From assembly GCF_003149375.1 (NCBI RefSeq), contig NZ_QFWH01000001.1, positions 291,593 through 355,592 on the forward strand: DNA of 64,000 nucleotides. The letters are read 5' to 3'. Positions 26,789 through 64,000 of this stretch are shown here, piece by piece. The notes under the pieces were generated by a model. It saw nothing but the letters and a program-made list of their open reading frames with translations. It ran no database searches and had not been told where the DNA came from. This stretch comes from Vampirovibrio chlorellavorus. GTDB taxonomy: Bacteria > Cyanobacteriota > Vampirovibrionia > Vampirovibrionales > Vampirovibrionaceae. The position numbers were made by a program, and so were the translations under genes. Every line of letters starts with the position of its first letter. Position 1 is the stretch's first letter.

Positions 26789-26789
26789 T

Positions 26790-27103: not shown

Positions 27104-28405
27104 ATGCTGGATATTAAACTGATTCGAGAAAACCCCGATGCTGTTAATCAGGCCCTGAAACGCCGGAAGCCGGATTTGTCCGTGGATGCCATACTGGCCC
27201 TGGACGCTCGGCGTCGGGAGTTGCTTCAGGAAGAAGAGTCTTTGAGAAGTCAACGTAATCAGATTACCCAGCAAATTGCCCAGGCCAAAAAAGAAGGTCG
27301 CGACACCGAGGCGATTCAGCAGCAAACCCGTGCCCTGGCTGATCGGATTAAGGACATTGAAGCCCAAAAGGAAGCGCTGGCGGAGCAACAATCTGCCTTG
27401 TTGCTGGAAATTCCCAATATGCCCTTGCCAGAAACGCCCGATGGGGCCGATGAGTCCGAAAATGTGGTGCTACGAACCTGGGGCGATGAATTCAAATCCC
27501 GTTACTGCCCGGACACGTTGCCGCATTATGAAATTGGGGCCAATCTGGGCATTCTGGACTTTGAGCGAGGCGTCAAAATCGCCCAGTCCCGCTTTTCGGT
27601 GATGCGGGGGGAAGGCTCCCGGCTGGAGCGGGCCCTGATTAACTTTATGCTGGATACGCATACCGAGCGGGGTTACGAGGAAGTGTTGCCGCCCTTTCTG
27701 GTCAACCGGCAAGCCATGACCGGTACGGGCCAGCTGCCCAAGTTTGAAGCCGATATGTTCCGCTGCAAGGATGACGAGTTGTTCCTGATTCCCACGGCGG
27801 AAGTGCCGGTGACCAACCTGTACGCCGGAGAATTGCTGTCCGAGGATCAACTGCCCCTGAACATGACGGCCTATACCCCGTGCTTCCGTCGGGAAGCGGG
27901 CAGTGCGGGCAAAGATACCCGTGGGTTGATTCGTCAGCACCAATTCGACAAGATTGAGCTGGTCAAGCTGTGCAGGCCGGAGGACAGCCCTGCGGAGCAT
28001 CTGAAATTGCTGGAAGATGCCGAAATGATCCTGCAAAAGCTGGAGTTGCCCTATCGAGTAGTGGCCCTCTGCGCTGGAGATATCGGGTTTTCCGCCGCCC
28101 GGTGCTTTGATATCGAGGTGTGGATGCCTGCGCAGGGCGTTTATCGGGAAATTTCCAGTTGCAGCACTTTTACAGACTTTCAGGCCCGTCGTATTGGCCT
28201 GAAATACCGCTCTGAAGCCACTGGTAAGCCTGCGTTTGTGCATACCATCAACGGTTCCGGCTTGGCCGTGGGTCGTACCTTGGCCGCCATTCTGGAAAAT
28301 TATCAAATCAGTCATCAGGAGGTAGCCATTCCTGAGGTGCTGCGCCCATACTTCAGGAACGGTTCAACCCGACTGTGCGCCCCAAGAAGCAAGGAACTGG
28401 TATGA
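27104..28405 (+). CDS. serS: seryl-tRNA synthetase
   Basis: N-terminal coiled-coil arm plus class II motifs (FRREAGSAGKDTRGL, GSGLAVGRTLAAILE). Start MLDIKLIRENP at 27104. Confidence 0.9.
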   Translation: MLDIKLIRENPDAVNQALKRRKPDLSVDAILALDARRRELLQEEESLRSQRNQITQQIAQAKKEGRDTEAIQQQTRALADRIKDIEAQKEALAEQQSALLLEIPNMPLPETPDGADESENVVLRTWGDEFKSRYCPDTLPHYEIGANLGILDFERGVKIAQSRFSVMRGEGSRLERALINFMLDTHTERGYEEVLPPFLVNRQAMTGTGQLPKFEADMFRCKDDELFLIPTAEVPVTNLYAGELLSEDQLPLNMTAYTPCFRREAGSAGKDTRGLIRQHQFDKIELVKLCRPEDSPAEHLKLLEDAEMILQKLELPYRVVALCAGDIGFSAARCFDIEVWMPAQGVYREISSCSTFTDFQARRIGLKYRSEATGKPAFVHTINGSGLAVGRTLAAILENYQISHQEVAIPEVLRPYFRNGSTRLCAPRSKELV

Positions 28406-29550
28406 GCATTCCTCCACAAGCATCTTCTCCTGACGTCTCCGGATCATCCTCTGGCCCTGTCTCGGGCGGGATAGACCTGGATATCTTTCTGAGAATGGCT
28501 GTGGCCCAGGGTGTCTCCGATATCCACGTTCGGGCGGGGGCCGCCCCGGTGATGCGTAAGGATGGCGACATGTTGCCAACCAAAATGCCACCGCTGTCGG
28601 AGTTGGACATTCAAAATTTCGCCAAAAGCATTATTCCCGAAAAAACCCTGCCCCGGCTTAAAAATCGGACGGATTTTGACTTCAGCTTTATGCTGGATAA
28701 CAGCTGTCGCTTCCGGGTCAACCTGTTTTACGAAATGGGGCGGCTGGGGCTGGTGATGCGTTTGATCCCCCTGCAAATTCCCACGCTGGATGATTTGGGG
28801 CATCCTCCGGTGATTAGCCGTTTTGCGGACTTGCACAAGGGGCTGGTGCTGGTCACCGGCCCTACCGGCTCGGGGAAGTCCACCACGTTGGCCGCCTTGC
28901 TCAATACCATTAACCGTACCCGGTACAAGCACATCGTCACTCTGGAAGACCCGGTGGAGTACGTTTACCAGAGCGACAAGAGCGTGGTCACCCAGCGACA
29001 GTTGGGGATGGACACAGACACCTTTCCCAATGGCATCAAGTACGCCTTGCGGCAGGACCCCGATGTCATTCTAATAGGCGAGATGCGGGATCGGGAAACC
29101 ATGATGGCCGCCTTGCACGCGGCGGAGACCGGTCACGTGGTCTTTTCGACCCTTCACACCACGGATTCGGTGCAGACCATAAACCGGATCATCAATGCCT
29201 TTGAGCCTTACGAGCGTGACTCCATCCGTAACCAATTGGCGGGCGTGCTGCAAGGTACAGTTTCTCAGCGTTTGGTTAAAAAAGCCGAAGGCAAGGGCCG
29301 GGTGGCTGTGTCTGAAGTTATGGTGGTTTCACCGGCCATTCGCGATTATATTTTGCGGGATGAAATGGGCGAAATTTATCAGTTGTTGAACAATGCCGAG
29401 TTTGAGGGGGCCCACAGCCTCAACCATTCTCTGCATAATGCGTTTCGCAATGGTTTGATTACGCCCGAAGACGCGCTGGAGACCTCCGAGAACCCGACCG
29501 AGCTTCAACAGATGCTACGCGGGGCGTTCCACGGCAGTTCCACTTTTTGA
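28402..29550 (+). CDS. pilT: type IV pilus retraction ATPase PilT
   Basis: Walker A GPTGSGKSTT, Asp box, Walker B and His box of the PilT/GspE family. ATG overlaps the serS stop (ATGA). Confidence 0.85.
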   Translation: MSIPPQASSPDVSGSSSGPVSGGIDLDIFLRMAVAQGVSDIHVRAGAAPVMRKDGDMLPTKMPPLSELDIQNFAKSIIPEKTLPRLKNRTDFDFSFMLDNSCRFRVNLFYEMGRLGLVMRLIPLQIPTLDDLGHPPVISRFADLHKGLVLVTGPTGSGKSTTLAALLNTINRTRYKHIVTLEDPVEYVYQSDKSVVTQRQLGMDTDTFPNGIKYALRQDPDVILIGEMRDRETMMAALHAAETGHVVFSTLHTTDSVQTINRIINAFEPYERDSIRNQLAGVLQGTVSQRLVKKAEGKGRVAVSEVMVVSPAIRDYILRDEMGEIYQLLNNAEFEGAHSLNHSLHNAFRNGLITPEDALETSENPTELQQMLRGAFHGSSTF

Positions 29551-47966: not shown

Positions 47967-47982
47967 GACTGGATTATATAGT

Positions 47983-48086
47983 ATGGCATATTTTTTATCA
48001 ATATTATATGCCATGCTATATAAACTGCCTGAATTGTTTTATACGCTATGACATATAAATATAAAAAATTATCTGCAATGGCATAT
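47983..48086. promoter_or_regulatory. candidate HipB operator array
   Basis: ATGGCATAT at 47983 and 48078. Inverted copy ATATGCCAT at 48006. Degenerate copy ATGACATAT at 48057. All sit in an AT-rich region upstream of hipB. Confidence 0.4.
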
Positions 48087-48226
48087 AAAAGCCTGCATCC
48101 GCTATCTGTGAAAAGGGGAAATCCTTCTAATGCCTGAGCCTCAAAAAATCTGCCCCGATTACACAGGCATTACACAAGGTTGTAAGCTCTCCAGGCCCTA
48201 ACACCCTAAAATCCTTGCAATAAAAA

Positions 48227-48300
48227 CACCCCAGACAGGATTCGAACCTGTGACCTACCGCTTAGAAGGCGGTTGCTCTATCCAACTGAGCTACTGAGGC
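48227..48300 (-). tRNA. tRNA-Arg (anticodon UCU)
   Basis: Reverse complement folds as a cloverleaf. Acceptor GCCTCAG/CTGGGGT. D-arm GCTCAGTTGGATAGAGC. Anticodon stem ACCGC/GCGGT with loop CTTCTAA. T-arm ACAGGTTCGAATCCTGT. Close to E. coli argU. No encoded CCA. Confidence 0.85.
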
Positions 48301-48422
48301 GTGTCGATAAATAGTAGTTCTATGGTAACAAAAACCGACACGCCTGATAATAGCCTCGACTACAAATAAAACTCACGTCTGCGGACAGCCTCCCCAAGTA
48401 CGCCCAGCCTTGCCTGTAAAGC

Positions 48423-48638
48423 CTAAAAGCCCAAAGCCGCTGTGAATAGGGTTGTCACCGAGGCAAAAATGGTGGTCATCAGGTTATTAAAACTGGGCGG
48501 GGCCACCAATAAACCGGCCAAAACAACGGCCACGGCAATCACCATGGCGCCCACATACTCCACCACCCCTTGCCCCCGAAAGCTCTTCTTCTGCTTGCCA
48601 CACACAATCGCAACCCTCATCACCTTTGGGGTGTCCAT
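48423..48638 (-). CDS. Flp/Fap-family type IVb prepilin
   Basis: G-QGVVEYVGAMVIAVAVV matches the Flp G/xxxEY cleavage motif and hydrophobic stem. The real start is probably MRVAIV at 48620. Confidence 0.55.
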   Translation of the reverse strand: MDTPKVMRVAIVCGKQKKSFRGQGVVEYVGAMVIAVAVVLAGLLVAPPSFNNLMTTIFASVTTLFTAALGF

Positions 48639-48729
48639 CCTTTTGGCAGGACGTACGGAGCGGACAACCCCAAGGCATTTATACCACTAGAGGATATATG
48701 CCTTCGGCAATGCTCATTAAAACCAATGG

Positions 48730-49086
48730 TTAAGAAGCATAAAGCATATTCTTGAGCTTGCGGTAAAAATTCTCGTGGGGGCCAATCAATAACACCACCA
48801 CACTGTCCGTTTCCGGAGATAACTGGTAGGCAATGCGGAACTCTTTGCCCTTGTAAGTGATGTGATGGGAAAAAACGGTGGTTAAAGGCTGAGACAAACG
48901 CTCACCCAGACGTTCCGGATTTTGACAAAGCCGTAATAAGGCATCTCGAATCAGGATTCGCAGCGGTTTGTCCAGATTTTTCTGGGCCTTATCCGCCGTC
49001 CGGGTTAAATAAAGCGTCCATTCACGCTCAGGTTGTATGCTTTCCGGGGGTAAGGCCGAGAAGCCATCGCTTAGCAAGGCGCTCAT
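48730..49086 (-). CDS. relE: RelE/ParE-family type II toxin
   Basis: Core LRILIRDALLRLCQNPERLGERLSQPLTTVFSHHITYKGKEFRIAYQLSPETDSVVVLLIGPHENFY is characteristic of RelE/StbE. It carries an N-terminal extension of about 25 aa. Confidence 0.7.
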   Translation of the reverse strand: MSALLSDGFSALPPESIQPEREWTLYLTRTADKAQKNLDKPLRILIRDALLRLCQNPERLGERLSQPLTTVFSHHITYKGKEFRIAYQLSPETDSVVVLLIGPHENFYRKLKNMLYAS

Positions 49087-49089
49087 GGT

Positions 49090-49299
49090 TTATAAATCCC
49101 CAAAAGCATCGCTCATCGATAATATTCGACCACTGCGCGAGTCGTCCAGACTGCTCAACAGCATGGAAATCTGCTCCACATCGGTCACAATCTCCAGGGT
49201 TTCCATCCGGGAGGCTCCCACGGCATCCACCGCGGCCGCCGCTACCGAGGAAAACCATGAATGACCATCTGCCTTGATATGTCCGTTGGATAAGGGCAT
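49090..49299 (-). CDS. candidate antitoxin partner of the RelE-like toxin
   Basis: ORF ends 3 nt before the toxin ATG. The C-terminus ...RILSMSDAFGDL resembles RelB/DinJ-type tails. The start is ambiguous: 49299 gives 69 aa, and the full ORF runs to 49521. Confidence 0.3.
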   Translation of the reverse strand: MPLSNGHIKADGHSWFSSVAAAAVDAVGASRMETLEIVTDVEQISMLLSSLDDSRSGRILSMSDAFGDL

Positions 49300-49572
49300 T
49301 GTAATTTCCCCACATTCAATCACGCATGCATTAAAACAAATTTTGTCATTTTGATGCCCCCTTCTCAGCCGATCAAAGTCGCTTTCAGGATTAAAAAACA
49401 AGGGGCGGTGGTACCTATCAGGAAGCACTCCTTCGGTCATCACCCTTAGGCCAGTGGGTGGTTTCGCTCCTGTAAATAGAGGAGATATGCCAGCGTAGCG
49501 CTCAAGTTTTGGCCACTCCACCCGATAGCGCTATCATACCCATCCGAACGGAAAGAGGAGCGAGCGCCCCTT

Positions 49573-50010
49573 ATGAATGCTGCCAACCCTTACGCCAGAC
49601 AGGCTGAGACCTACAAGAAGAATCAGATTGAAACGGCCACCCCGGAAGAAATCCTGATTATGCTCTATGAGGGGGCCATTCGGTTTTTGCTGGTCGCCAA
49701 AAAGGCCGATGAAGAAAAAAATCTGGAAAAATACAGTAAAAACATCATCAAGGCCCAGCACATCATCCAGGAATTCATGAACAGTCTGGATTTGGAAATC
49801 GGGGGCGAAATGGCCGTCAACCTGTACCGCCTGTACGACTACTTACACTACCGGCTGGTGCAAGGTAACATTAAAAGAGATATCGCCATGCTGGATGAAG
49901 TCATCGATCATCTCAGAAAACTGAAAGGGACCTGGGAAGAGGCCATTGTTATCGCCAAGCGGCAAAGGGAAGCGTTACCGGATGAACCCGAAACCACCGT
50001 GCAAGTATAA
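49573..50010 (+). CDS. fliS: flagellar export chaperone FliS
   Basis: NPY ... TATPEEILIMLYEGAIRFL ... IKAQHIIQEF ... LYDYLHYRLVQGNIKRD aligns along the whole FliS family. Confidence 0.85.
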   Translation: MNAANPYARQAETYKKNQIETATPEEILIMLYEGAIRFLLVAKKADEEKNLEKYSKNIIKAQHIIQEFMNSLDLEIGGEMAVNLYRLYDYLHYRLVQGNIKRDIAMLDEVIDHLRKLKGTWEEAIVIAKRQREALPDEPETTVQV

Positions 50011-50050
50011 CTTTGAAGAGGCCGACGGGCTATTGAATCAGCTGGAAATA

Positions 50051-50365
50051 ATGACTCAAACCATACTTCAGCATAGCATTGGAGACGATCTGCCCAGGCT
50101 CAACCAGTTAATTCTGGAGCGGGAGCGAATTATCGAGGCTTGCCAGGTCCTCGATACAGACGCCTTCACGCTGGCACAAAAAGCGCACCTTCGGGTCAGG
50201 CTGGAGTCCTGCCAGGCACTGGATCTGGAGATTGAGCAGAACATGAATGACTTTAAAACGCGTATGGGCCAACAGCTTCGGCATCTCAGGCAAAGTCAAA
50301 ATCTGCTTGGGAAGTACCAAAGTCCCGCAGGTAGCGGTCAGGAAACCCATAACGAGGACGCCTAG
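50051..50365 (+). CDS. small helical protein, possibly FliT/FlgN-like
   Basis: Follows fliS. About 105 aa from MTQTILQ. All-helical composition. Assignment rests on position only. Confidence 0.3.
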   Translation: MTQTILQHSIGDDLPRLNQLILERERIIEACQVLDTDAFTLAQKAHLRVRLESCQALDLEIEQNMNDFKTRMGQQLRHLRQSQNLLGKYQSPAGSGQETHNEDA

Positions 50366-50398
50366 CCATAAAAACGCCTTTTAAGGTACTATGGAAGC

Positions 50399-50764
50399 AT
50401 GGTATCGCTCATCCCGGTTCTTGTTGTAGAAGATGATCCCCACTGGCAAGAGGGGATTCAGGTTTTGCTGCAGCAAAGTGGTCGGTTTCAGGCCGTATCC
50501 ATTGTTGATCATTACGAAGACGCCCTGAGCGCATTTACGCAGTATCAGCCACAGCTGGTTCTGCTGGACTGGCAGATTATTGGAGAGAAAGACGGGCTGG
50601 ACGTCGGGCATAAACTGCTTCAGCTCGGCCTGGCCTCTCATCAAATCGTCCTGATTAGCGCGGCCAATCCGCAATCCATCCCCAGCCACCCGTTTCTGTA
50701 TATCCCTAAAAATCAAATCTCGGACCAACTTTTGCCCCTGCTGGACGCTTTATTTCCCGCGTAA
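50399..50764 (+). CDS. stand-alone CheY-like receiver domain protein
   Basis: VLVVEDDP ... LVLLDWQI ... receiver motifs. 121 aa. No output domain. Confidence 0.7.
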   Translation: MVSLIPVLVVEDDPHWQEGIQVLLQQSGRFQAVSIVDHYEDALSAFTQYQPQLVLLDWQIIGEKDGLDVGHKLLQLGLASHQIVLISAANPQSIPSHPFLYIPKNQISDQLLPLLDALFPA

Positions 50765-51073
50765 ATTTCAGCGCTTGCGTCCTTATTTTGTCTTTGCTAT
50801 ATATAATGCTCCCACCTTAAATGGCTAAAATTGCAGGTTCTATGCAATTTGAGTTTACCTCTCAAGCGTTACACATCAGGCTGTTACGAGCCTATCTGGG
50901 TAAAAGTCCAGAGATAAAACCATTTAAGGCAAATCCCCCGGTTCCAAGTCAGTGGATTGTTTTGGCAATCCGGGCTGGCCTGCAGCTTTAGGGAACCAAG
51001 CAACCAAAACCGTTCAAAAAACGGAAGCACGCATCACAAACGGAACAAAAGAACGGAATAAAAGAAAGGATCA
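50765..51073 (+). promoter_or_regulatory. rplJ promoter and probable L10 leader region
   Basis: 309-bp untranslated leader with TATATAAT -10-like box near 50800. L10(L12)4 autoregulatory leaders are well known upstream of rplJ. The RNA structure was not verified. Confidence 0.3.
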
Positions 51074-51610
51074 GTGGCTGCCGTGGGAAAACTGGCCCAA
51101 AAACAAGAGACCGTAGAAGTACTCAAGGAGCACTTGGGGAAAGCCACCATCGCTGTCGTGGCTGACTATCGCGGTTTGACTGTGTCCGAGCTGACCCAGC
51201 TTCGCCGGGAACTCTACAAAGAGAAAGCTCAGTTCACGGTTGCAAAAAACACGTTGGCAATCCATGCCATCAAAGACACCGAACTGGACGCCTTGAAGGA
51301 TTCGCTGAAAGGTCCGACCGCTCTGCTCATTGGGCAGGCCGATCAGGTTGCCCCGGTGAAAATCCTGACCGAGTTCTTTAAAAAGAACAAAAAGTCCAAT
51401 CAAATCCGGGCCGGTGTCCTGGACAGCAAGCTTCTGAGTCCGGCTGAAGTGGATCAGCTGGCAAAGCTCCCGCCACTCGAAGAGCTTCGCGGAAAACTGG
51501 TGGGTGCTATCAATTCTCCGTTGAGCGGTATTGTTTCGGCAATCAGCAGCCCGCAGCGCGGTCTGGTGAACGTGCTGGATCAGTATGCGAAACGTTTGCA
51601 GGAAGCGTAA
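51074..51610 (+). CDS. rplJ: 50S ribosomal protein L10
   Basis: GTG start after AAGGA. KATIAVVADYRGLTVSELTQLRREL core. Confidence 0.9.
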   Translation: MAAVGKLAQKQETVEVLKEHLGKATIAVVADYRGLTVSELTQLRRELYKEKAQFTVAKNTLAIHAIKDTELDALKDSLKGPTALLIGQADQVAPVKILTEFFKKNKKSNQIRAGVLDSKLLSPAEVDQLAKLPPLEELRGKLVGAINSPLSGIVSAISSPQRGLVNVLDQYAKRLQEA

Positions 51611-51696
51611 ATTTACGGGCCGTTCTCCCCAGATTTACCCCTCCCTGTTACAAGGTGTTACCAAGTCAACAATCAAAATAATGAGGTTCCATTTCA

Positions 51697-52086
51697 ATGC
51701 CTGTTGAATTAGATGACAAGACAAGTAAGATTTTTGAAGAAATCAAAACCTTGAGCTTCTTGCAAACCGCCAATCTGGTAAAAGCGTTCGAAGACGAGTT
51801 CGGTATCACCGCTTCCGCTCCCATGGCCGTTGCTGCTATGCCTGCCGCTGGTGGCGCTGCCGCTGAAGAAGAAGTGACTGATGTGACCGTTATCTTGAAA
51901 GATGCCGGTAGCAACAAGATCGCCGTTTTGAAAGAAGTGCGCGCCATCACCGGTTTGGGCTTGAAAGAAGCCAAGGATCTGGTGGACGCTGCTCCGAAGC
52001 CCATCAAAGAAGGCGTGAAAAAAGAAGACGCCGCCAAATTGAAAGAGCAGCTGGAAGCCGCTGGCGCTACCATCGAAATCAAGTAA
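51697..52086 (+). CDS. rplL: 50S ribosomal protein L7/L12
   Basis: N-terminal dimerisation helix, Ala/Glu-rich hinge. C-terminal domain [28 protein letters not shown]. Confidence 0.9.
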
Positions 52087-52094
52087 CCGCATCA

Positions 52095-52160
52095 TAGGCA
52101 AGGGAAAACCGAGACAGCCAATTCCAAGGAATGGCCACTTGGTTTTCCTTTTTGCCTATG
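52095..52160 (+). terminator. putative attenuator hairpin between rplL and rpoB
   Basis: Imperfect long hairpin (ggcaagggaaaacc ... ggttttcctttttgcc) followed by a T-rich run. Partial terminators at this position are classical. Confidence 0.4.
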
Positions 52161-52297
52161 AAATTTTGCGTTTCCGTATGTCCTTGATATAGTGGGATAT
52201 TGTTTGACCCCTATTATATTTTTGATCGTGACCTGATTCAGTCTCTAGCGCGCAATCCACCACTCTAACTACGTTTTCAATTACGACGAGGTTCACA

Positions 52298-55200
52298 ATG
52301 GCAGCAAAGACCATGCGTTCAACCCTTCCAGGTATTGGGTCTCTCCCCCTGGAGCAACTACCAGATTTGGCTGAAATTCAAAAGAATTCTTTTAACTGGT
52401 TTATTACCGAAGGTCTTAAAGAAGAGCTTTTATCCTTCTCTCCAATTCGTGACTACACCGGCCGTCTAGAGCTTTACTTCCTGCCAGAATACAGTTTCGA
52501 CAAGCCCAAGCACACTGTGGAAAGTGCCCGGCTTCATGACACCACCTATGCTCGTCAACTCAGAATTATGTTGCGCCTGGTCAACCGGGATACCGGTGAG
52601 ATCAAGGAGCAGGAAGCCTATATCGGCGAAATTCCCATGATGACCGATCGTGGGACTTTCATCATTAACGGCGCCGAGCGGGTGATTGTTTCCCAGATCG
52701 TCCGTTCCCCCGGGATTTATTACAAGAAAGATCAGGCCTTGAACGGTAAGCGTATCTTTAACGCTACCATGATCCCCAATCGGGGCGCCTGGTTGAAGTT
52801 TGAAACCGATATCAACGACGTCATCTACGTCAAGATTGACAAAAACCGCAAGATTTTGGCCACTACCCTCTTGCGTGCCTTGGGTCTTTCCGTCGCGGAA
52901 ATGGAAAACCAGTTCCGTCATTTTGACTACCTCAAGAAGACTTTGGATAAGGATCCTACGGAAACCACCGAGGAAGCCTTGATCGAGGTCTACAAAAAAC
53001 TCCGTCCCGGTGATCCGCCCAGCGTTAGCGGCGGACGCTCTCTCTTGGAAAGCCGCTTCTTTGATGAAAAGCGCTATGACTTGGGCAAGGTGGGCCGCTA
53101 CAAGGTCAACAAAAAACTGGGCTTGTCCGCGCCAGATACTGTGCGGGTTTTGACCAACGAAGATATCGTTTCGGCCATCGATTACCTGATTAACCTGAAT
53201 TACGATGATGGTCAGGTGGATGACATCGATCATTTGGGGAACCGTCGGATTCGCGCGGTGGGTGAACTGCTGCAAAACCAGTTCCGGGTGGGTTTAACCC
53301 GTCTGGAGCGGATTGTTAAAGAGCGGATGACCTTGCAGGATATCGACACGTTGACCCCCAACAATCTGTTGAACCCCAAGCCTTTGCTGGCGGCCATCCG
53401 GGAGTTTTTTGGCTCTTCCCAGCTCTCCCAGTTTATGGATCAAACTAATCCATTGTCTGAGTTGACCCACAAACGACGTTTGTCTGCCTTGGGGCCTGGT
53501 GGTTTGACCCGTGAGCGGGCCGGTTTTGCGGTTCGTGATATTCACCCCAGCCACTACGGAAGAATTTGCCCGGTAGAGACACCGGAAGGGCCCAACGCCG
53601 GTTTGATTGGCTCTTTGGCCACTTATGCCCGCGTGAACGAGTATGGCTTCCTGGAAACCCCATATTGGGAAGTCAAAGACGGGAAGCTGACCGGGGAAAT
53701 CCACTTCTTGTCCGCCGATGAAGAGGACAAGTATCGTGTGGCCCCCGGTGACGCCACCCGTGCTGAGGATGGTACCTTGACTGGTTCCGCCGTTCCGGTT
53801 CGTTATCGCAACGAATTTACCATTACCGAACCCGATACCGTTGACTACGTCGGCGTTTCCCCCATCCAGATTGTCTCTGTGGGTACGGCCTTGATTCCCT
53901 TTTTGGAGCATGATGATGCCAACCGGGCCTTGATGGGCTCTAACATGCAACGGCAATCGGTGCCTTTGGTTTCCGCTGAGCGTCCCATGGTTGGAACTGG
54001 CCTGGAGCGTCGCGTGGCCATGGACTCCGGTATGTCGCTGGTTTCCGAAGTGGAAGGTAAAGTCGAGCGCGTGACCGGTGAGAGCATTGACATCCGTGGC
54101 AAAGACGGGAAGCTCCACTCTTACCCCATGATCAAGTACCTGCGCAGTAACCAGGATACCTGCTTAAACCACCGTCCCATTGTCCGGGTGGGTGATTCCG
54201 TGGACGCCGGACAGGTCATTGCCGACGGCGCCGCCAGTCAGCAAGGCGAACTGGCACTGGGTCGCAACATTATGGTGGCCTTCATGCCTTGGGAAGGCTA
54301 CAACTTTGAAGATGCCATCCTAATCAGCGAGCGCCTCATTCACGATGATGTGTACACCAGTATTCACATCGAGAAATTGGAAGTAGACGCCCGTACCACT
54401 AAGCTGGGGCCGGAGGAAATCACCCGGGAGATTCCCAACGTGGGTGAAGACGCCCTGCGCAACCTGGATGAGCGCGGTATCGTGCGGGTTGGTGCCCGGA
54501 TGTTCGCCGGTGACATTCTGGTCGGCAAGATTACCCCCAAGGGTGAATCCGAGCATCCGCCGGAAGAGAAGCTGCTGCGGGCCATTTTTGCCGAGAAGGC
54601 ACGTGATGTGAGAGACAACTCTCTCCGTGTTCCCCACGGAGAAGGTGGCCGGGTGGTTGATGTGAAGGTCTTTGACCGCGAAAAAGGTGATGAATTGCCG
54701 CCCGGGGCCAATACCGTGGTTCGAGTCTACTTGGCCCAGAAGCGTAAAATCAGCGTGGGCGACAAGGTGGCAGGACGTCACGGAAACAAGGGGATTGTTT
54801 CCAAGATCCTACCCATTGAAGATATGCCCTTCATGCCGGATGGCACCCCCATTGATATCGTTTTGAACCCGCTGGGCGTACCGTCTCGTATGAACGTGGG
54901 TCAAACCTATGAGACTCTGTTGGGCTTAGCGGCTCACTTGACTGGCAAGCACTACGAAGTGCCTCCGTTCGATGAAATGTACGGGGAAGAAGCCTCTCGT
55001 ACGGCCGTTACCAAAGAATTGCAAACTGCCATTGATGACGCCGGCATCGACTGGATTTTCAGCGATGGGAAAGCGGTCTTGTATGATGGACGGAACGGCG
55101 AGCCCTTCGCCAACCGGGTCGCCATTGGTCGCATGTACGTTATGAAACTGGTCCACCTGGTAGACGACAAGATCCACGCCCGTAGCACCGGCCCTTACAG

Positions 55201-55600
55201 CTTGGTAACCCAGCAGCCGTTGGGTGGTAAGGCTCAATTTGGTGGTCAGCGCTTCGGGGAGATGGAAGTATGGGCCCTGGAAGCATACGGCGCCGCCTAT
55301 ACCCTGCAGGAAATGCTAACCATCAAGTCTGATGATGTGGTGGGTCGTTCCCGGGCTTATGAGGCCATCGTCAAAGGTGAGAACCTGAATCGACCCAGTA
55401 TTCCTGAGTCTTTCAAGGTACTGGTTCGTGAAATTCATAGTATTGGCCTGGATATTACAGTGAAAAAACGACTGAAAGACGGTCGTGAGGTTGAAATCGA
55501 TTTGATGGCGGATGAAGCGGCTCGTGCCCCCAAGCGCGAATTTGCCTCCGCTGGCAACGAACTGCTCAACTTCTTCTCTGCCAATTCCGATTCGATTTAA
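52298..55600 (+). CDS. rpoB: DNA-directed RNA polymerase subunit beta
   Basis: 1100 aa with all conserved beta-subunit blocks (rifampicin-cluster region, [21 protein letters not shown]). Confidence 0.95.
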
Positions 55601-55612
55601 AGGAGCACCACT

Positions 55613-57331
55613 GTGGTAAGCACCAATATTGACCAGTTTGATTTCATCAAAATCGGGATTGCCTCGCCCGAGCGCGTAATGAATTGGTCTCACGGCGAGG
55701 TGATGAAGCCCGAGACCATTAACTACCGAACCCTGAAGCCCGAGCGGGATGGCCTGTTTTGCGAGCGTATCTTTGGTCCTTCCAAGGACTGGGAGTGCTA
55801 TTGCGGCAAGTACAAGCGGGTTCGCCACCGAGGCATCGTTTGCGAACGTTGCGGCGTCGAGGTGACTGAATCCAAGGTGCGCCGTCACCGCATGGGCCAT
55901 ATTAAATTGGCCGCACCGGTTACCCATATCTGGTTCCTGAAAGGGATTCCCAGCTACTTGGGCCTGATTCTGGATATGTCCCTGAAGGATTTGGAGCAAG
56001 TGATTTACTTCAACTCCTACGTGGTTCTGGATCCGGGAAATACCGAACTGAAGGCCAACCAGTTGCTCTCGGAAGAAGATTACGAAACCATCCTGGAAGA
56101 AAACGAAGAAGCTCAGCTAGAAGTTGGTATTGGCGCAGAGGCCATCCAGATTTTGCTGTCCCGCTTGAACTTGCAGGAAATGAGTGATGCCCTGAAGCAA
56201 GAGCTGGAAGAAATTACCGGCTCCAGCCAAAAGCGGGTCAAACCGTTGAAGCGTCTGCGCTTGGTGGAATCCCTGCTGCAGAGTGGTACCAACCCTTCCT
56301 GGATGGTCATGGACGTATTGCCTGTGATCCCCCCGGACTTGCGCCCCATGGTGCAGCTGGATGGTGGTCGTTTTGCCACTTCCGACCTGAATGATCTGTA
56401 CCGTCGGGTCATCAACCGGAATAACCGCTTGTCCCGTTTGCTGGAAATGGGCGCTCCGGAAATCATCGTGCGGAACGAAAAGCGGATGTTGCAGGAAGCG
56501 GTGGACGCCTTGATTGACAATGGACGTCGTGGCCGTACGGTCGTGGGCCCCAACAACCGCCCTCTGAAGTCCTTGTCCAACATTATTGAAGGAAAACAGG
56601 GTCGGTTCCGCCAAAACTTGCTGGGTAAGCGGGTTGACTACTCCGGTCGGAGTGTAATCGTGGTCGGTCCCCGGTTGAAACTGCACCAGTGCGGTTTGCC
56701 CAAGGAGATGGCCATTGAGCTGTTCAAGCCCTTTGTCATCAACAAGCTGATTGAACGTGGTGAAAGCCAGAACATCAAGTCGGCCAAAAAGACCATTGAG
56801 CGTCAGGAAACTGTGGTTTGGGACGTTCTCGAAGAGGTCATCAAGGGTCACCCTGTTCTGCTGAACCGGGCTCCAACGCTGCACCGTCTGGGGATTCAGT
56901 CCTTTGAGCCGGTTTTGGTGGAAGGGCGCGCCATCCAGCTCCACCCGCTGGTTTGTACCGCTTTCAACGCCGACTTTGATGGTGACCAGATGGCCGTTCA
57001 CGTACCCCTGTCGGTGGAAGCCCAGACGGAAGCCCGCATGCTGATGATGGCTACCAACAACGTATTGCAGCCTTCAACCGGCAAACCGATTATTACTCCC
57101 TCCCAGGATATGGTTTTGGGCATTTACTACCTGACCCTGGACAACCCCCACGCCACTAAAGGCGCAGGTATGAAATTCTTTAGCTTTGAAGACGCCCTGG
57201 CGGCTTTTGAAGCGGGAGTGATTGATCTGCACGCCAAGGTGATTGTGCGTGATGAAGGTGGTCAACTCATTGAAACCACCGCAGGACGGATTATTTTCAA
57301 CAAAACCGTCCGTCAATCGGTTCTCCAGTAA
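55613..57331 (+). CDS. rpoC1: DNA-directed RNA polymerase subunit gamma (N-terminal part of beta-prime)
   Basis: Zinc-binding [35 protein letters not shown] active site. Ends with a stop 25 nt before rpoC2. Confidence 0.9.
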
Positions 57332-57356
57332 GCATTGAACGAGGTAACAGGCACCT

Positions 57357-60300
57357 ATGAGCATCCTATCGCCCAACAAATCCCAGAAAAAGCAGTTGGA
57401 CTTCATCAACAAGGTGGTTGACAAGAAGGAGTTGAACCGCTTGCTGGCCAAGGTTTATGCCGAAATGGGCATGGCTAAAACCGGTACGCTGGCCAATAAC
57501 CTGAAGGATTTGGGCTTCCGCTACGCTACCAAAGCTGGCGTCACCATTTCCATTGACGATTTAAGCGTTCCTGAAGCAAAGAAAAGTCTGATCAATGACG
57601 CCGAGGCCGAGATTGAGCGGGCTACCCAGCGCTTCATGAAGGGCGAGATCACCGAGGTGGAACGTTATACCAAGGTTATCGACACCTGGAGCGAAACCAC
57701 TGAAAAATTAACCAAGTCCGTGGTCGACAACTTCGACCGCTTGAACCCGGTATACATGATGGCTTTCTCCGGTGCCCGGGGGAACATCAGTCAGGTTCGT
57801 CAGTTGGTGGGGATGCGGGGCCTGATGGCGGACGCACAGGGGCAGATCATTGACTTGCCCATTAAATCCAACTTCCGGGAAGGCTTGAGCGTAACCGAGT
57901 ACATCATTTCCAGCTACGGTGCCCGGAAAGGTCTGGTAGACACCGCCTTGAAAACCGCTGACTCCGGATACCTGACCCGTCGTCTGGTAGATGTCGCTCA
58001 GGACGTGATTATTCAGGAAGCCGATTGCGGTACCACCAACGGGATCCCTATGCGGGCCATCATGGAAGGTGAATCCGAGATCATGTCCCTGGTGGATCGG
58101 GTGATCAGTCGGGCCGCCGCGGTGAACGTGGTGAATGAAGATGGGGAAGTCCTGGTCCCCGCCGGTGAAATCATTACCTTGGCCTTGGCCGATGTGATTG
58201 AGAAATCCAATATCAAAGAAATCCTGATGCGTTCGGTGCTGACTTGCGAAAGCCAGGTCGGAATTTGCCAGAAGTGCTACGGTTGGTCTCTCACCAGTAA
58301 CAAGATCGTTGATATTGGTGAAGCCATTGGGATTATCGCCGCGCAAAGTATCGGGGAGCCTGGTACTCAGCTGACCATGCGTACCTTCCACACGGGCGGT
58401 GTATTCAGCAGCTTGGGCAAACGCGAAATGTTCAAGGCCAAGAGCGATGGCGAAGTGGTCAGCAAGCTACCCACCCGGGACTTCCGGACCCGTCATGGCG
58501 ACACCGTGCAGATGACCACCCGCGATTGCACTCTGGAGATCAAGGGTGCCGACGGTAAGACCAGCAAGTACAACCTGCCTTTCAACACCCAGGTCATGGT
58601 GGCAGCTGGCGACAAGGTGAAAAAAGATCAGATTATCGCCTCGTTTGAACCCACTGCGGGCCGTAAAACGGAGCGGGCTACCAAGGATATTACCGGTAGC
58701 ATGAGCGGAGAAGTCTGGTTTGATGGCTTTGACGCCGATGAAAAACGGGATCGTCAAGGCAACATCAGCCGGACCGCCAACCGCCCCGGTACCATCTGGG
58801 TTCTGGGTGGCGACGTTTACAACTTGCCCACTGGGGCCAAGCACATGGTTCAGGATGGACAAGTGCTGAACGTCGGTGAGATCATCGCTGAAACCCACGT
58901 GGTCAGTGAGCATGGTGGTGAAGTCCGTATTCCCGCTGATCTCGAAATCGAAGAACACAAGGTCGGCAAGGAAACCGTTAAGAAAATCATCAACGGTAAA
59001 GACCTCACCATCATCATTGCCAGCATTTCCCCTAGCAATGCCGAATTGGTGCAGACCAAGAAAGAACAGTTGTGGAAAGTGGGCGACGATGAGGAGACCT
59101 ACATCGTCAAATCCCCACAGGGCACTTCTCTGGAAAACGGCAGTGTGGTCGCCGAGCTGATTGATGAAAGCATGGCCGTTCCCACCAGTGGCCAAATCCG
59201 CTACCTGGATGTGGAAGTCGATGAGCAGCGTATTTTGACCCAAACGGGCAAAATCCTGTTCTTGCCGGAAGAAATCCATCAGGTCAGCAAGGATATCTCC
59301 CTGAAAGTGCCCGGTATCGAATCTGGCATGGAAGTGACCGCGGGTACCGAGATCATCAAGGGTATTACCTGTCAGACGGACGGTATCGTGGAAATTGTGG
59401 AAGAAAACGACATTGTCCGCGAGGTCGTGGTGCGTCCCGGCAAGTTGTTCCGTGTGGACGATATCAGCACCCTGAACGTGGATGATGGTACCGTGGTCAG
59501 CAAAGGCACCGAGGTCGCCCCGGGTATTAAGGCCACCGAAGATTGCGTGGTGACCGTCAACTTCCAGATTGAAGTCCCGGAAGATGATGATGAGGACATT
59601 GAGGACACCAGCGATCTGGAATACGCCGAAGTGCTGTTGCGTCCTTACCAGGAATTCATTATCGAGCCCCGCAAAGTCAAGATTGATTTTGAATCCACCG
59701 ATCCTGACAACATTACCATCGTGCCGGTGACCCAATTGCAGGTGAAGGATGGCGACAAAATTCGCCATATCGAAGGCGCCCCCATTTTGAGAACCAGTCT
59801 GGTTCTGCAAATGAAAGGGTATCTGGAGCGCCTGAAGGCCGTCGCCGAGATCAAGGATGGCAGCAAAAAAGAGGGTGATAACCTGAAGGTGGTGGTTCTG
59901 GAGAACCTGACCATCCGTCGGGAAAATCCTTCCGGATTCAGCTCCCAGAAAACCGCCACCCAGACCCAACTGCTGGTGGAAGATGGCCAGGTGATCGACA
60001 AACGCTCCCCTGTGGTCAAAACGCAGGTTATTACCCACACCAAGGGTCGGGTTAGCCTCGGCAACGCGGCCAATGACAAGGACGTGCGTCGGGTACTGTT
60101 GATTACCGACGATCATGAAACTGTGATCGAGACCAGCACCAAGCCAACCGTTAAAGTGGGCGACTTTGTGACCATGGATCAGGAAATCGCTGCGGTGGAT
60201 AAAACCCCCATTTCCGGACAAGTGACTGCGGTTGACGCCAAGTCCGTGACCATCCGGGAATCCCAGCCCTACCTGATTTCCGGTGGTACCTTGCTGCAAG

Positions 60301-61304
60301 TTGAAAACCGGGCCCTGACCCAACGGGGCGACTTGATTGCCTCGCTGATCTTTGAACGGCAAAAGACCGGGGATATTGTTCAGGGTCTTCCTCGGGTTGA
60401 AGAATTGCTGGAAGGACGGAAGCCCAAGGAGTCCGCCATTATCGCTCCCGTGGACGGTACGGTGGAAATCATCTGGGAAGAGGACGTCCAGCGTTTATAC
60501 CTGACCAGCATCAACGGCCGGGAAGAGATCTCCATTCCGGTTGGCTCCAACATCGTGGTGGAAAACAAACAGGCGGTCAAAGCGGGTCAAGCCCTGACCG
60601 ATGGCCCCATCAACCCCCACGATATTCTGGTTGTCTCCGGCATTGAAGCCGTCCGGGAATACCTGGTGGAAGAAGTTCAGCGGGTTTACCGGTCTCAGGG
60701 TGTAGAGATCGCCGACAAGCACATTGAAGTCATTGTTCGTCAGATGACCAAGAAGGTTCGTGTGGACGAAGCCGGGGATACCACCCTGTTGGGCGGCGAA
60801 CTGGTGGACGAAAAAGCGGGTGCAGAAGCCAACCGTGTTATTGAAGGCAAGGAAGGCAAGCTGCCTGCCGAGTATCACCCGGTTCTGCTGGGTATCACCA
60901 AGGCCAGCTTGAATACCGAGAGCTTCATTTCCGCTGCCTCTTTCCAGGAAACCACCCGGGTTCTGACCGAAGCGGCCGTGGAAGGCAAGCGCGACTTCCT
61001 GCGTGGCTTGAAGGAAAACGTGATTATTGGCCGTCTCATCCCGGCCGGTACCGGTTTCCCTCACTTCAAGGACGAGCGTGCCGATATGTTCGACGACGCC
61101 GAACAGGCTTTGGCCGCCAAGTCCTCGCTGCGTAAACCGTCGGCCATTCTGGAAGAGATTGAAAGCATGTTCGGTTCACCGGAAATCTCGGAAGAGACTA
61201 TGGAAAGCCTGCTCATCGACGATTCCTCCATGCATGTCGAGACCATCGGCGGCGTTGAAGGCGAAGACGAAGACTACTCCAGCGACGCGATTCTGGACGA
61301 CTAG
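57357..61304 (+). CDS. rpoC2: DNA-directed RNA polymerase subunit beta-prime (C-terminal part)
   Basis: Own RBS and ATG. Trigger loop, bridge helix region and a large lineage-specific insertion. 1315 aa, as in cyanobacterial rpoC2. Confidence 0.9.
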   Translation: MSILSPNKSQKKQLDFINKVVDKKELNRLLAKVYAEMGMAKTGTLANNLKDLGFRYATKAGVTISIDDLSVPEAKKSLINDAEAEIERATQRFMKGEITEVERYTKVIDTWSETTEKLTKSVVDNFDRLNPVYMMAFSGARGNISQVRQLVGMRGLMADAQGQIIDLPIKSNFREGLSVTEYIISSYGARKGLVDTALKTADSGYLTRRLVDVAQDVIIQEADCGTTNGIPMRAIMEGESEIMSLVDRVISRAAAVNVVNEDGEVLVPAGEIITLALADVIEKSNIKEILMRSVLTCESQVGICQKCYGWSLTSNKIVDIGEAIGIIAAQSIGEPGTQLTMRTFHTGGVFSSLGKREMFKAKSDGEVVSKLPTRDFRTRHGDTVQMTTRDCTLEIKGADGKTSKYNLPFNTQVMVAAGDKVKKDQIIASFEPTAGRKTERATKDITGSMSGEVWFDGFDADEKRDRQGNISRTANRPGTIWVLGGDVYNLPTGAKHMVQDGQVLNVGEIIAETHVVSEHGGEVRIPADLEIEEHKVGKETVKKIINGKDLTIIIASISPSNAELVQTKKEQLWKVGDDEETYIVKSPQGTSLENGSVVAELIDESMAVPTSGQIRYLDVEVDEQRILTQTGKILFLPEEIHQVSKDISLKVPGIESGMEVTAGTEIIKGITCQTDGIVEIVEENDIVREVVVRPGKLFRVDDISTLNVDDGTVVSKGTEVAPGIKATEDCVVTVNFQIEVPEDDDEDIEDTSDLEYAEVLLRPYQEFIIEPRKVKIDFESTDPDNITIVPVTQLQVKDGDKIRHIEGAPILRTSLVLQMKGYLERLKAVAEIKDGSKKEGDNLKVVVLENLTIRRENPSGFSSQKTATQTQLLVEDGQVIDKRSPVVKTQVITHTKGRVSLGNAANDKDVRRVLLITDDHETVIETSTKPTVKVGDFVTMDQEIAAVDKTPISGQVTAVDAKSVTIRESQPYLISGGTLLQVENRALTQRGDLIASLIFERQKTGDIVQGLPRVEELLEGRKPKESAIIAPVDGTVEIIWEEDVQRLYLTSINGREEISIPVGSNIVVENKQAVKAGQALTDGPINPHDILVVSGIEAVREYLVEEVQRVYRSQGVEIADKHIEVIVRQMTKKVRVDEAGDTTLLGGELVDEKAGAEANRVIEGKEGKLPAEYHPVLLGITKASLNTESFISAASFQETTRVLTEAAVEGKRDFLRGLKENVIIGRLIPAGTGFPHFKDERADMFDDAEQALAAKSSLRKPSAILEEIESMFGSPEISEETMESLLIDDSSMHVETIGGVEGEDEDYSSDAILDD

Positions 61305-61326
61305 GATTCATCGCATTTAAAACAGG

Positions 61327-61363
61327 AAAACCACCGCACCTTTTTCAGGGCGGTGGTTTTCTT
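61327..61363 (+). terminator. rho-independent terminator after rpoC2
   Basis: aaaaCCACCGCacctttttcaggGCGGTGGttttctt. Confidence 0.75.
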
Positions 61364-61437
61364 ATGAACAGGCCATTTAAAGACCGGCATTTTTAGAGTA
61401 AAATAGCGACCTCTCTGGTAGTTCCCCTCAAGCAGAA

Positions 61438-61974
61438 TTGATGATTCGCACTATGTCTACCACACAAATTGTTTGCTTTTCCGACAGCTTGAAGCAACTG
61501 AAACGGCGCAAGGCCATGAAGTACTTCCACGAGGGGTACCGGGCCCAGTTGCAGCGGGATTACTACAAGGCCATTGAAAAGTACCAGGAGTCCATTGAGG
61601 TCTACCCGACGGCAGAAGCCCACACTTTTTTGGGCTGGACCTACAGTTTTTTAGGCGAGCTGGAAAATGCCATTGAAGAATGTCAGCGGGCTATTGAAGT
61701 GGATCCTGATTTTGGTAATTCCTACAACGATATTGGCGCTTACCTCATTGCCAAAGGGAAGTATCAGGAGGCGGTGCCTTACTTGCAGCAGGCGTTGAAG
61801 GCCAAGCGCTACCGGGCCTATCATTTTGCCCACTTTAATCTGGGTCGGGCCAAAGAGTATCAGGGTGATATTATCAACGCCCTGCGTCACTACAAACAGG
61901 CCCTGGAGCTTGAACCCCGCTATCTGATTGCCTATAAGGCCATTGAGCATCTGAAAAAGTTTACGCTGAACTAG
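61438..61974 (+). CDS. TPR-repeat protein
   Basis: Three to four TPR units (AIEKYQESIEVYP ... AYHFAHFNLGRAKEYQGD). Confidence 0.55.
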   Translation: MMIRTMSTTQIVCFSDSLKQLKRRKAMKYFHEGYRAQLQRDYYKAIEKYQESIEVYPTAEAHTFLGWTYSFLGELENAIEECQRAIEVDPDFGNSYNDIGAYLIAKGKYQEAVPYLQQALKAKRYRAYHFAHFNLGRAKEYQGDIINALRHYKQALELEPRYLIAYKAIEHLKKFTLN

Positions 61975-62064
61975 ACAGGCGCTTTGCAGACTGTTATCCA
62001 GAGGCCGGAAATCCTTCAAAATAGGGTATGATAGTTAGCGTTTTGGGACTATGTGTTTTAGGGC

Positions 62065-63387
62065 ATGGGCTTTTTATCCCGATTGATTTATAACATTCTG
62101 CTTTGCCTCGGACTGGTCATCCTGAGTCCACTATGGCTGGCCTATTTGGCTAGCGTGCCCAAGGCCCGGGCTGGGCTCAAGCCCAAGCTGGGGCTTTACA
62201 CGGATGAACTTAAGAGCCAGCTGAGCCGAAAAGCCAAGCCCCGTTTGTGGTTTCACGCCGTTTCCGTGGGTGAGTTTAACGCCATTAAAACGCTGATTCC
62301 CCACTTGAGTGAGCGCTATGACGTGGTGATTTCCACCACCACGCAAACCGGGCAGGATTTGGCCTTGCGAACCTTTCCCCAGCTGATAGTCCTGTATTTC
62401 CCGTATGATTTTCCCTGGGTGATTACGAGGGTTCTTCGCTACATTCAGCCCGATTTGGTTGTTCTCACGGAAACCGAACTATGGCCTAATTTTATCCATG
62501 AGGTCACCCGGGTACGGGGTGTGCCCCTGATTTTGATCAATGGCCGCTTGTCGCAGCGCTCCTTTAAAAGTTATCAGTGGATTACGCCGCTCATCAAGCC
62601 CTGTCTGCATGAGGTGACGCACCTGTACATGCAATCTCAGGCCGATGCCGATCGCATGGTGCGCTTGGGGCAGCTGGCCCCGGAGCAGTGGACGGTGGCG
62701 GGGAATTTGAAGTTTGATCTCATTCCCACTGTGGATGAGGATAAGCAGGCGCAATTGGCTCACCTGCTCAATATTCATCGGGGGGATACGGTACTGACCT
62801 TTGCCAGTACACACTCCGGGGAGGACTTGCCTTTGCTGGAGAGTTACCTGAGCCTGAAAAAAGATTTCCCGGAACTCAAGCTCATTCTGGCCCCTCGTCA
62901 CCCGGAGCGTTTGGCCGAAATTAAAACCATTCTGAATAATAAGGCGGTTGCTTATGCGGTGCGCAGTCAGCTATCCGCAACCCATCCCAATCAGCAGGAC
63001 GTTTTGGTGCTGGATTCGATTGGGGAATTGCTGACCGTGTACAGCCTGTCCAGCATTGCGGTGATGGGGGGGAGCTTCATCGAACGGGGTGGGCAAAACC
63101 CCTTGGAGCCTCTTAGTCAGGGCATTCCCGTTATTTTTGGCCCGCACATGCACAATTTTAGTGAAATCAGCCGATTGGTGATAGAAGGTGGGGCGGGGAC
63201 TCAGGTTCATACGCAGGATGAGCTGATCAACGCCGTGACCAGTTTGCTGACCCAGCCCGAAATTTACCAGATGGTTTCCGAAAAGGGATTGCAGCTCATC
63301 GAAAACAACCGGGGGGCCAAAGCCATTATTCTGAAAGCCATTGAGAACCACTTGCCTGCTGAAAGACTCCGGGAAAGCATTCCCTGA
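62065..63387 (+). CDS. waaA: 3-deoxy-D-manno-octulosonic acid (Kdo) transferase
   Basis: N-terminal membrane anchor then WFHAVSVGEFNAIKTLIPHL and the GT30 fold. 440 aa. Confidence 0.8.
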   Translation: MGFLSRLIYNILLCLGLVILSPLWLAYLASVPKARAGLKPKLGLYTDELKSQLSRKAKPRLWFHAVSVGEFNAIKTLIPHLSERYDVVISTTTQTGQDLALRTFPQLIVLYFPYDFPWVITRVLRYIQPDLVVLTETELWPNFIHEVTRVRGVPLILINGRLSQRSFKSYQWITPLIKPCLHEVTHLYMQSQADADRMVRLGQLAPEQWTVAGNLKFDLIPTVDEDKQAQLAHLLNIHRGDTVLTFASTHSGEDLPLLESYLSLKKDFPELKLILAPRHPERLAEIKTILNNKAVAYAVRSQLSATHPNQQDVLVLDSIGELLTVYSLSSIAVMGGSFIERGGQNPLEPLSQGIPVIFGPHMHNFSEISRLVIEGGAGTQVHTQDELINAVTSLLTQPEIYQMVSEKGLQLIENNRGAKAIILKAIENHLPAERLRESIP

Positions 63388-63533
63388 CCGGCGGTTGCTC
63401 CGATCCGCTGGCCCAGATAAATCTTGCGGCCATGTGCAGACTGGGGGAGGGTGTTGCAAATCAGGGGAGATAAATCTCCCAACTTTGGTTAAACTAGGGG
63501 TATCGTTTCAAGCGGAGCATGAGGGGAGTTTTT

Positions 63534-64000
63534 ATGGCCATGACCGAAGCAGCGCACACTGTCGCCTTAACCGGAGCGCCCACCGGCACGCAAAAAGTCT
63601 GCAAATCCTGGCTGACGGAAGCGGCCTATCGCATGCTGCTGAACAATCTGGATCCGGCGGTGGCCGAAGATCCCCAAGCGCTGGTGGTCTATGGCGGCAC
63701 GGGTAAGGCGGCCCGCAACCCGGCCTGTCTGGCCAAAATTCTGGAGACCCTGAAAACGCTGGAAAACGATGAAACCCTGCTGGTACAATCCGGCAAACCG
63801 GTGGGCGTCATGAAGTCTCACCCCGATGCGCCCCGGGTGCTGATCGCCAATTCCAATCTGGTGCCCGCCTGGGCCAACTGGGAGCAGTTTCGGGAATATG
63901 AGCGCATGGGCCTGACCATGTACGGTCAAATGACCGCCGGAAGCTGGATTTACATTGGCAGCCAAGGCATTGTGCAAGGCACGTACCTTACTTTTGCCGA
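63534..64000 (+). CDS. hutU: urocanate hydratase, 5' fragment truncated by the window end
   Basis: RBS GAGGGGAG then [12 protein letters not shown] ... [12 protein letters not shown] ... [19 protein letters not shown] ... [23 protein letters not shown] are urocanase hallmarks. There is no stop within the window. Confidence 0.8.

Follow-up and report, generated by a model that had tools for sequence, protein, structure and literature searches.

Split rpoC1/rpoC2 genes with a giant Si3 insertion near flagellar genes in the non-photosynthetic predator Vampirovibrio chlorellavorus

Introduction

Why would a bacterium with flagellar genes encode the largest subunit of its RNA polymerase (RNAP) in two pieces, as Cyanobacteria and plastids do? 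The question is raised by a 64,000-nucleotide stretch of contig NZ_QFWH01000001.1 (positions 291,593 to 355,592; hereafter the window), in which rpoC1 and rpoC2 take the place of a single rpoC behind rpoB, and the flagellar gene fliS lies a short way upstream. The contig is assigned to Vampirovibrio chlorellavorus (class Vampirovibrionia/Melainabacteria, phylum Cyanobacteriota), a flagellated predator of Chlorella and the first melainabacterium to be cultured. A sequence-only reading of the window had described the split as a hallmark of Cyanobacteria and plastids, had listed FliS, a FliT-like open reading frame (ORF), an Flp prepilin and PilT in the same stretch, and had offered two explanations for the combination: a basal or non-photosynthetic cyanobacterial relative, or an unusual horizontal acquisition.

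Structural papers on RNAP treat the split and the large Si3 insertion in its second half as features of cyanobacteria and chloroplasts alone, and connect them with photosynthetic organisms (PMC10895346, PMC10120043). The terms Melainabacteria, Vampirovibrionia and Sericytochromatia are absent from both of these papers, and among the open-access papers searched we found none that joins Melainabacteria with rpoC1 and rpoC2. Here we conclude, with a probability of roughly 95%, that the window is V. chlorellavorus chromosome carrying a cyanobacteria-style split rpoC and native flagellar genes, and that the split and Si3 are most simply ancestral.

Results

Two genes in different reading frames encode beta'

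The beta' subunit of the window is divided between a 572-residue gamma subunit and a 1315-residue rpoC2 product, and the coordinates and lengths given for them in the sequence-only reading agree exactly with the ORF list (Table 1). The gene order is rpoB-rpoC1-rpoC2, all on the + strand and directly behind rplJ-rplL. Pfam assigns Rpb1 domains 1 and 2 and the first half of domain 3 to RpoC1, and the remainder of domain 3, followed by domains 4 and 5, to RpoC2. Among the NCBIfam models, TIGR02387 (rpoC1_cyan) matches RpoC1 at 985.8 bits against a cut-off of 975.9, and TIGR02388 (rpoC2_cyan) matches RpoC2 at 1301.3 bits against a cut-off of 467.4; the stricter cut-offs of NF002729 and NF002724 are not reached.

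The GTG start of rpoC1 yields an N-terminus that agrees with those of its homologues (MSTSIDYFDYIKIGIAS), and 7 nucleotides before this GTG lies an AAGGAG that overlaps the stop of rpoB. The gene ends with TAA at 57329-57331, and rpoC2 restarts at 57357 in another frame, the junction reading CTC CAG TAA gcattgaacgaggtaacaggcacct ATG. Because the two ORFs occupy different frames, the junction is not one in-frame stop. The length of the spacer had been read correctly as 25 nucleotides, but the ribosome-binding site attributed to it comes down to a weak Shine-Dalgarno-like GAGG located 12 nucleotides upstream of the rpoC2 ATG and an AGG at 5 nucleotides, with nothing stronger.

We considered whether the stop might have come from faulty sequencing or assembly, or from a recent pseudogenizing mutation, in what is truly a single rpoC. 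Some close relatives do carry rpoC as a single ORF (L002, P0105 and P0111, described below), but the different frames and the intervening spacer make such an origin highly improbable. In addition, an independent Logan assembly of read set SRR7132427 is 100% identical to positions 56965-64000 of the window, junction included, and the gene was annotated by IMG as a "gamma chain" in a separate assembly from 2015. The division also recurs outside V. chlorellavorus: the N-terminal beta' domains PF04997/PF00623 are absent from 118 of the best 120 RpoC2 clusters, most of which are ~1290-1350 residues long, and a Gastranaerophilales genome (L001) has an identical split architecture with a spacer that is likewise 25 nucleotides long. 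These observations confirm that the split is real and not a chance pattern of ORFs.

The break lies at the cyanobacterial position

To compare split sites, we joined RpoC1 and RpoC2 end to end and aligned them with relatives. In this alignment, the stops of Gastranaerophilales L001, Obscuribacterales L003, Prochlorococcus, Acaryochloris and Leptolyngbyales all lie within 1-3 residues of the V. chlorellavorus stop. The break is in a conserved surface loop after a TTxGRxIFN motif, at the same position as in oxygenic cyanobacteria, and the C-terminus of RpoC1 aligns with the C-termini of cyanobacterial gamma subunits. In phmmer searches of the PDB, the best matches of RpoC1 are cyanobacterial gamma chains (8H3V_E, 8SYI_D and 8GZG_D), and RpoC2 matches cyanobacterial beta' chains end to end (8GZG_Z, 8SYI_Z and 8H3V_B). 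Structures of cyanobacterial RNAP show the split ends in a surface loop with the same local fold as un-split beta', and an artificial 6-residue linker across the split gives an active enzyme (PMC10120043).

The V. chlorellavorus genes resemble those of cyanobacterial RNAP (Synechocystis 6803, 8GZG; S. elongatus, 8SYI; and 8H3V) and plastid-encoded RNAP in that rpoC1 and rpoC2 follow rpoB, the break is in the same surface loop, and a ~650-residue Si3 sits in the trigger loop, whereas the host of the V. chlorellavorus genes is non-photosynthetic. Its gamma subunit is also shorter, with 572 residues compared with 624-626 in oxygenic cyanobacteria (~50 fewer), because it is without a segment of ~40 residues that precedes the C-terminal TTxGRxIFN.

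Two further observations concern these parts of the locus. Vampirovibrionia gamma subunits are ~50 residues shorter than oxygenic cyanobacterial ones (8H3V_E being the chain compared), and the ~40-residue segment seems to have been inserted specifically in oxygenic Cyanobacteriia. The spacers at L001:11714-11738 and at 57332-57356 of the window are equal in length, at 25 nucleotides, and differ in sequence; in the oxygenic cyanobacterial loci examined, the rpoC1-rpoC2 spacers range from 16 to 66 nucleotides.

A giant Si3 occupies the trigger loop

The ~653 extra residues of RpoC2 (Table 1) are flanked by FHTGGV and GDIVQGLPRVEELLE, which places Si3 inside the trigger loop. Si3 comprises 639 residues in Prochlorococcus, 656 in Gastranaerophilales, ~618 in Obscuribacterales (L002), ~213 in Margulisbacteria and 0 in Bacillota. 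Between V. chlorellavorus and Prochlorococcus, Si3 is 32.7% identical over 611 aligned positions, far below the 63% identity of the core. The alignment of RpoC2 to 8GZG_Z nevertheless runs unbroken through Si3, which is homologous along its length.

The window belongs to Vampirovibrio chlorellavorus

RpoC2 matches the V. chlorellavorus protein WP_303672916.1 at 100% identity, and another close RpoC2 (P0002) is 98% identical. Among the matches listed, which represent GTDB species, RpoC1 identity is 78% to Gastranaerophilales, 75% to Candidatus Obscuribacter and 74% to Obscuribacterales, compared with 65-68% to oxygenic cyanobacteria and Bacillota. A phylogeny, which the sequence-only reading had proposed as a check, was run as a bootstrapped neighbor-joining tree of 20 taxa, computed from 555 alignment columns in the region that corresponds to RpoC1. 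The window falls into a Vampirovibrionia clade with Gastranaerophilales and Obscuribacterales at 100% bootstrap; this clade is sister to the oxygenic cyanobacteria (100%) rather than nested inside them, and Margulisbacteria form the outgroup (90%).

The published V. chlorellavorus genome, described by Soo et al. 2015 (PMC4451040), has a GC content of 51.4% and no genes for photosystems, chlorophyll or carbon fixation. It does encode a full flagellum as well as type IV pili, and its fliI tree agrees with the species tree of the Melainabacteria. In the supplements of that paper, consecutive or nearly consecutive IMG numbers are assigned to fliS (2600255622), fliT (..623), L7/L12 (..626), rpoB (..627) and an "RNA polymerase gamma chain" (..628), the same order as in the window from 49573 to 57331. 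Because of this match, the locus, gamma annotation included, has been public since 2015, although the rpoC split is not discussed there: "rpoC" and "RNA polymerase" occur 0 times in the main text (PMC4451040). The GC content of the window is 0.49-0.57, and none of the ~60 window ORFs scanned is a photosystem, chlorophyll or carbon-fixation gene, the genome-wide absence being that reported in PMC4451040. Window and published genome agree in gene order, GC content, flagellum, type IV pili and the lack of photosynthesis; they differ in that the window may stem from another assembly or strain. We found nothing that contradicts the identification as V. chlorellavorus, and the idea of a basal or non-photosynthetic cyanobacterial relative is borne out by the RpoC2 identity, the RpoC1 tree and the published genome without photosystems.

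The same data bear on two other accounts of the unusual gene combination. In one, a photosynthetic cyanobacterium would have acquired fliS and its neighbors horizontally as an isolated remnant, and fliS does adjoin toxin-antitoxin genes, a tRNA-Arg gene and a slightly lower-GC stretch in an island-like setting. However, RpoC1 branches outside the oxygenic cyanobacteria with 100% support, RpoC2 is identical to that of V. chlorellavorus, and the genome has a whole flagellar set, no photosystems and a fliI tree congruent with the species tree (PMC4451040), so that this account is exceedingly unlikely; transfer into a phototroph is already refuted by the identity of the organism. The horizontal acquisition that had been offered as an alternative is unnecessary given that identity, the RpoC1 tree and the complete flagellum of the published genome. 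Nor do the tree and the genome show the pattern that the sequence-only reading had named as refuting its view, namely rpoC1/rpoC2 grouping inside a photosynthetic clade with other flagellar genes missing. In the other account, a chimeric assembly would have joined a cyanobacterial rpoBC contig to DNA of a flagellated bacterium. Nothing besides the gene combination itself speaks for this, and it is the least credible explanation we weighed, since the order fliS, fliT, L7/L12, rpoB and gamma chain is kept in the IMG numbering of the independent 2015 assembly, GC content is even across the window, and the flanking housekeeping genes are consistent with a single genome. Independent assemblies and conservation in relatives rule out both a chimera and a sequencing error.

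Split and un-split rpoC among relatives

The description of the split as a hallmark of Cyanobacteria and plastids holds insofar as the split is present there, but it is too narrow: the split reaches into Vampirovibrionia, where it is not universal. In Candidatus Obscuribacter sp. MP5IB2 (L002:1829-7339, JADYXS010000141.1), rpoC is un-split and encodes 1832 residues continuously across the split site, whereas its sister L003, also of the Obscuribacterales, has a split rpoC with a 62-nucleotide spacer. Two clusters of un-split RpoC, P0105 (1873 residues) and P0111 (1870 residues; member OGI00666.1, "Candidatus Melainabacteria bacterium"), are present in NCBI, ENA and JGI assemblies. These un-split Melainabacteria proteins are homologous to the split ones and keep a large Si3 (~618 residues in L002), differing in that a single ORF of 1832-1873 residues runs through the split site. 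A Margulisbacteria rpoC (L037:3915-7485, from a Margulisiibacteriota metagenome-assembled genome) is likewise un-split and has an Si3 of only ~213 residues. All of these genes come from the broader lineage of cyanobacteria or from the group that is sister to it. The split and the Si3 expansion would thus both have arisen in the interval bounded by Margulisbacteria on one side and by the ancestor that Vampirovibrionia share with Cyanobacteriia on the other.

The un-split genes of L002, P0105 and P0111/OGI00666.1 could also indicate that un-split rpoC is ancestral in the class and that the Vampirovibrionia split arose convergently with that of oxygenic cyanobacteria. A convergent break might be favored by the site itself, a surface loop tolerant enough for the artificial linker to leave the enzyme active (PMC10120043). 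We consider convergence unlikely, since the stop lies 1-3 aligned residues from the cyanobacterial stop in three Vampirovibrionia orders, gene order is identical, and Si3 is shared. Moreover, L002 (fused) and L003 (split) group as close sisters within the Obscuribacterales, so local re-fusion fits better than several independent splits. Re-fusion is plausible because the linker experiment joined the two halves into an active enzyme. Taken together, this distribution points to genes that re-fused naturally, or split repeatedly, in the Vampirovibrionia.

Flagellar and pilus genes

The FliS and PilT named in the sequence-only reading are both well matched by their families (Table 1). The FliT-like ORF follows fliS, and IMG names the gene after fliS "fliT"; its PF05400 match, below the gathering score, spans profile positions 8-85 of 85, and no NCBIfam match was found. 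Its start is likely the ATG at 49982 or the one at 50051. Gene position and the IMG name agree with the designation FliT-like, but the family score falls short of it. The Flp prepilin fared less well: the candidate ORF at 48423-48638 has the motif but no Flp family match in Pfam or NCBIfam even at E<=1, and our scans of the window found no tad assembly genes (TadA/B/C, CpaB-type), leaving the claim of an Flp pilus in the window weakly founded. Flp/Tad genes are present elsewhere in the V. chlorellavorus genome (Soo 2015 Table S3, PMC4451040).

Other features of the window

The stretch at 46363-49521 has a lower GC content (~0.49) and directly abuts fliS. It contains a HipA gene with a helix-turn-helix partner (46363-48014), a tRNA-Arg(tct) gene (48226-48301), the Flp-like ORF, and a ParE-like toxin gene (48730-49086) with a small ORF upstream, and it may be an island integrated beside the tRNA gene. 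At 16418-24005, a 1120-residue BcsA-like family-2 glycosyltransferase with C-terminal PilZ domains is followed by a 1358-residue tetratricopeptide repeat/BcsC-like protein; the pair looks like a cyclic di-GMP-controlled exopolysaccharide (cellulose-type) synthase in this algal predator. Housekeeping genes at 1306-3721 (-), 8968-12902 (-), 39873-41429 (-) and 63519-64000 (+) include those for cytochrome bd oxidase subunits I and II, two glycoside hydrolase family 57 (GH57) glucan enzymes (one amylase/4-alpha-glucanotransferase-like, the other a branching enzyme), and histidine utilization (an aromatic amino acid lyase, probably HutH, and the urocanase HutU), a context that fits the published aerobic heterotroph. 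ORFs of 195-609 residues at 41572-43401 (-), 37057-37920 (-), 44575-45405 (+), 45641-46228 (-) and 26090-26830 (-) matched neither Pfam nor NCBIfam families at the thresholds applied. A link has been proposed between the acquisition of Si3 and the loss of secondary-channel factors (PMC10895346). Of these factors, no GreA, GreB or DksA is encoded in the window; these names are also absent from the supplements of Soo 2015, which is no proof of absence.

Table 1. Features of the rplJL-rpoBC1C2 region and the flagellar and pilus genes, in window coordinates
Feature	Position	Strand	Evidence
rplJ (ribosomal protein L10), first gene of the rplJL-rpoBC1C2 cluster	51074..51610	+	PF00466 E=9e-27
rplL (ribosomal protein L7/L12)	51697..52086	+	PF00542, PF16320; IMG gene 2600255626 in Soo 2015 Table S2
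rpoB, RNAP beta, 1100 residues	52298..55600	+	TIGR02013 1670 bits, above cut-off; all Rpb2 domains present
rpoC1, gamma / beta'1, 572 residues, GTG start 12 nucleotides past rpoB stop	55613..57331	+	TIGR02387
rpoC1-rpoC2 spacer, 25 nucleotides, weak Shine-Dalgarno-like GAGG/AGG	57332..57356	+	direct sequence reading
rpoC2, beta'' / beta'2, 1315 residues, ATG start	57357..61304	+	TIGR02388
Si3 in trigger loop, RpoC2 residues ~351-1003, ~653 residues	58407..60365	+	MAFFT vs Si3-less Bacillota beta'
fliS, flagellar export chaperone	49573..50010	+	PF02561 E=2.7e-39, 134 bits; TIGR00208 108 bits vs 53.75; IMG 2600255622
FliT-like ORF	49946..50365	+	PF05400 23.9 bits vs gathering 29.5, E=7e-5
Single-domain response-regulator receiver (CheY-like), downstream of fliS/FliT-like ORF	50399..50764	+	PF00072 E=1e-10
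PilT/PilU-family type IVa pilus retraction ATPase	28375..29550	+	TIGR01420 434.6 bits vs 319.1; PF00437
Flp-like candidate, 71 residues, unconfirmed	48423..48638	-	G-QGVVEY motif then hydrophobic helix, motif only

Discussion

The results presented above lead us to the following picture of RNAP in V. chlorellavorus. The largest subunit is encoded by two adjacent genes in a tight rplJ-rplL-rpoB-rpoC1-rpoC2 cluster, in which rpoC1 and rpoC2 are probably co-transcribed with rplJL-rpoB. The rpoC1 product, gamma or beta'1, contains the clamp, the zinc finger and the catalytic NADFDGD loop, and the rpoC2 product, beta'' or beta'2, contains the bridge helix, the trigger loop with its ~650-residue Si3, and the jaw. 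RpoC2 would be translated by independent initiation 25 nucleotides past the rpoC1 stop. By homology to the solved cyanobacterial enzymes, the subunits would assemble into a six-subunit core, 2-alpha/beta/gamma/beta''/omega. The split and the giant Si3 would most simply be a legacy of the ancestor that Vampirovibrionia share with oxygenic cyanobacteria, with occasional re-fusions since, and the flagellar genes are native to the V. chlorellavorus lineage, the oxygenic cyanobacteria being the side without them.

Several caveats apply to this picture. RpoC1 clears TIGR02387 narrowly and stays under the cut-off for NF002729, a narrow pass that is expected for a basal lineage. The Shine-Dalgarno motif of rpoC2 is weak. 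Scans of 49-62.2 kb found promoters and terminators at chance level (10 vs 9.0 and 14 vs 16.8 expected, respectively), so the operon structure is read from gene spacing, and Rfam returned tRNA as its sole match, with no leader or attenuator detected upstream of rplJ. The phylogenetic placement comes from a distance tree of one protein region. Finally, un-split rpoC in some Melainabacteria means that a single ancestral split needs later re-fusions.

The genome of V. chlorellavorus, its flagellum, its pili and its lack of photosynthesis are already known and were published in 2015. The split and giant Si3 in non-photosynthetic lineages, and the un-split rpoC of some Melainabacteria, seem to be undiscussed in the open-access RNAP literature, although their distribution may be known informally or from database annotation. 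We lean toward the view, without great confidence, that the split and a ~650-residue Si3 are common to non-photosynthetic Vampirovibrionia, have no tie to photosynthetic life and may be older than oxygenic photosynthesis, that the giant Si3 postdates the divergence of Margulisbacteria, and that some Melainabacteria re-fused the halves while keeping Si3. Because a heterotrophic predator has both the split beta' and the giant Si3, explanations based on photosynthesis-specific transcription must account for Vampirovibrionia as well. If this view is correct, pairs such as the split L003 and the fused L002 of the Obscuribacterales would be natural material for asking why beta' is split. The value of the locus thus lies in the evolution of RNAP, for which the mixture of split and fused genes among Melainabacteria offers natural comparisons.

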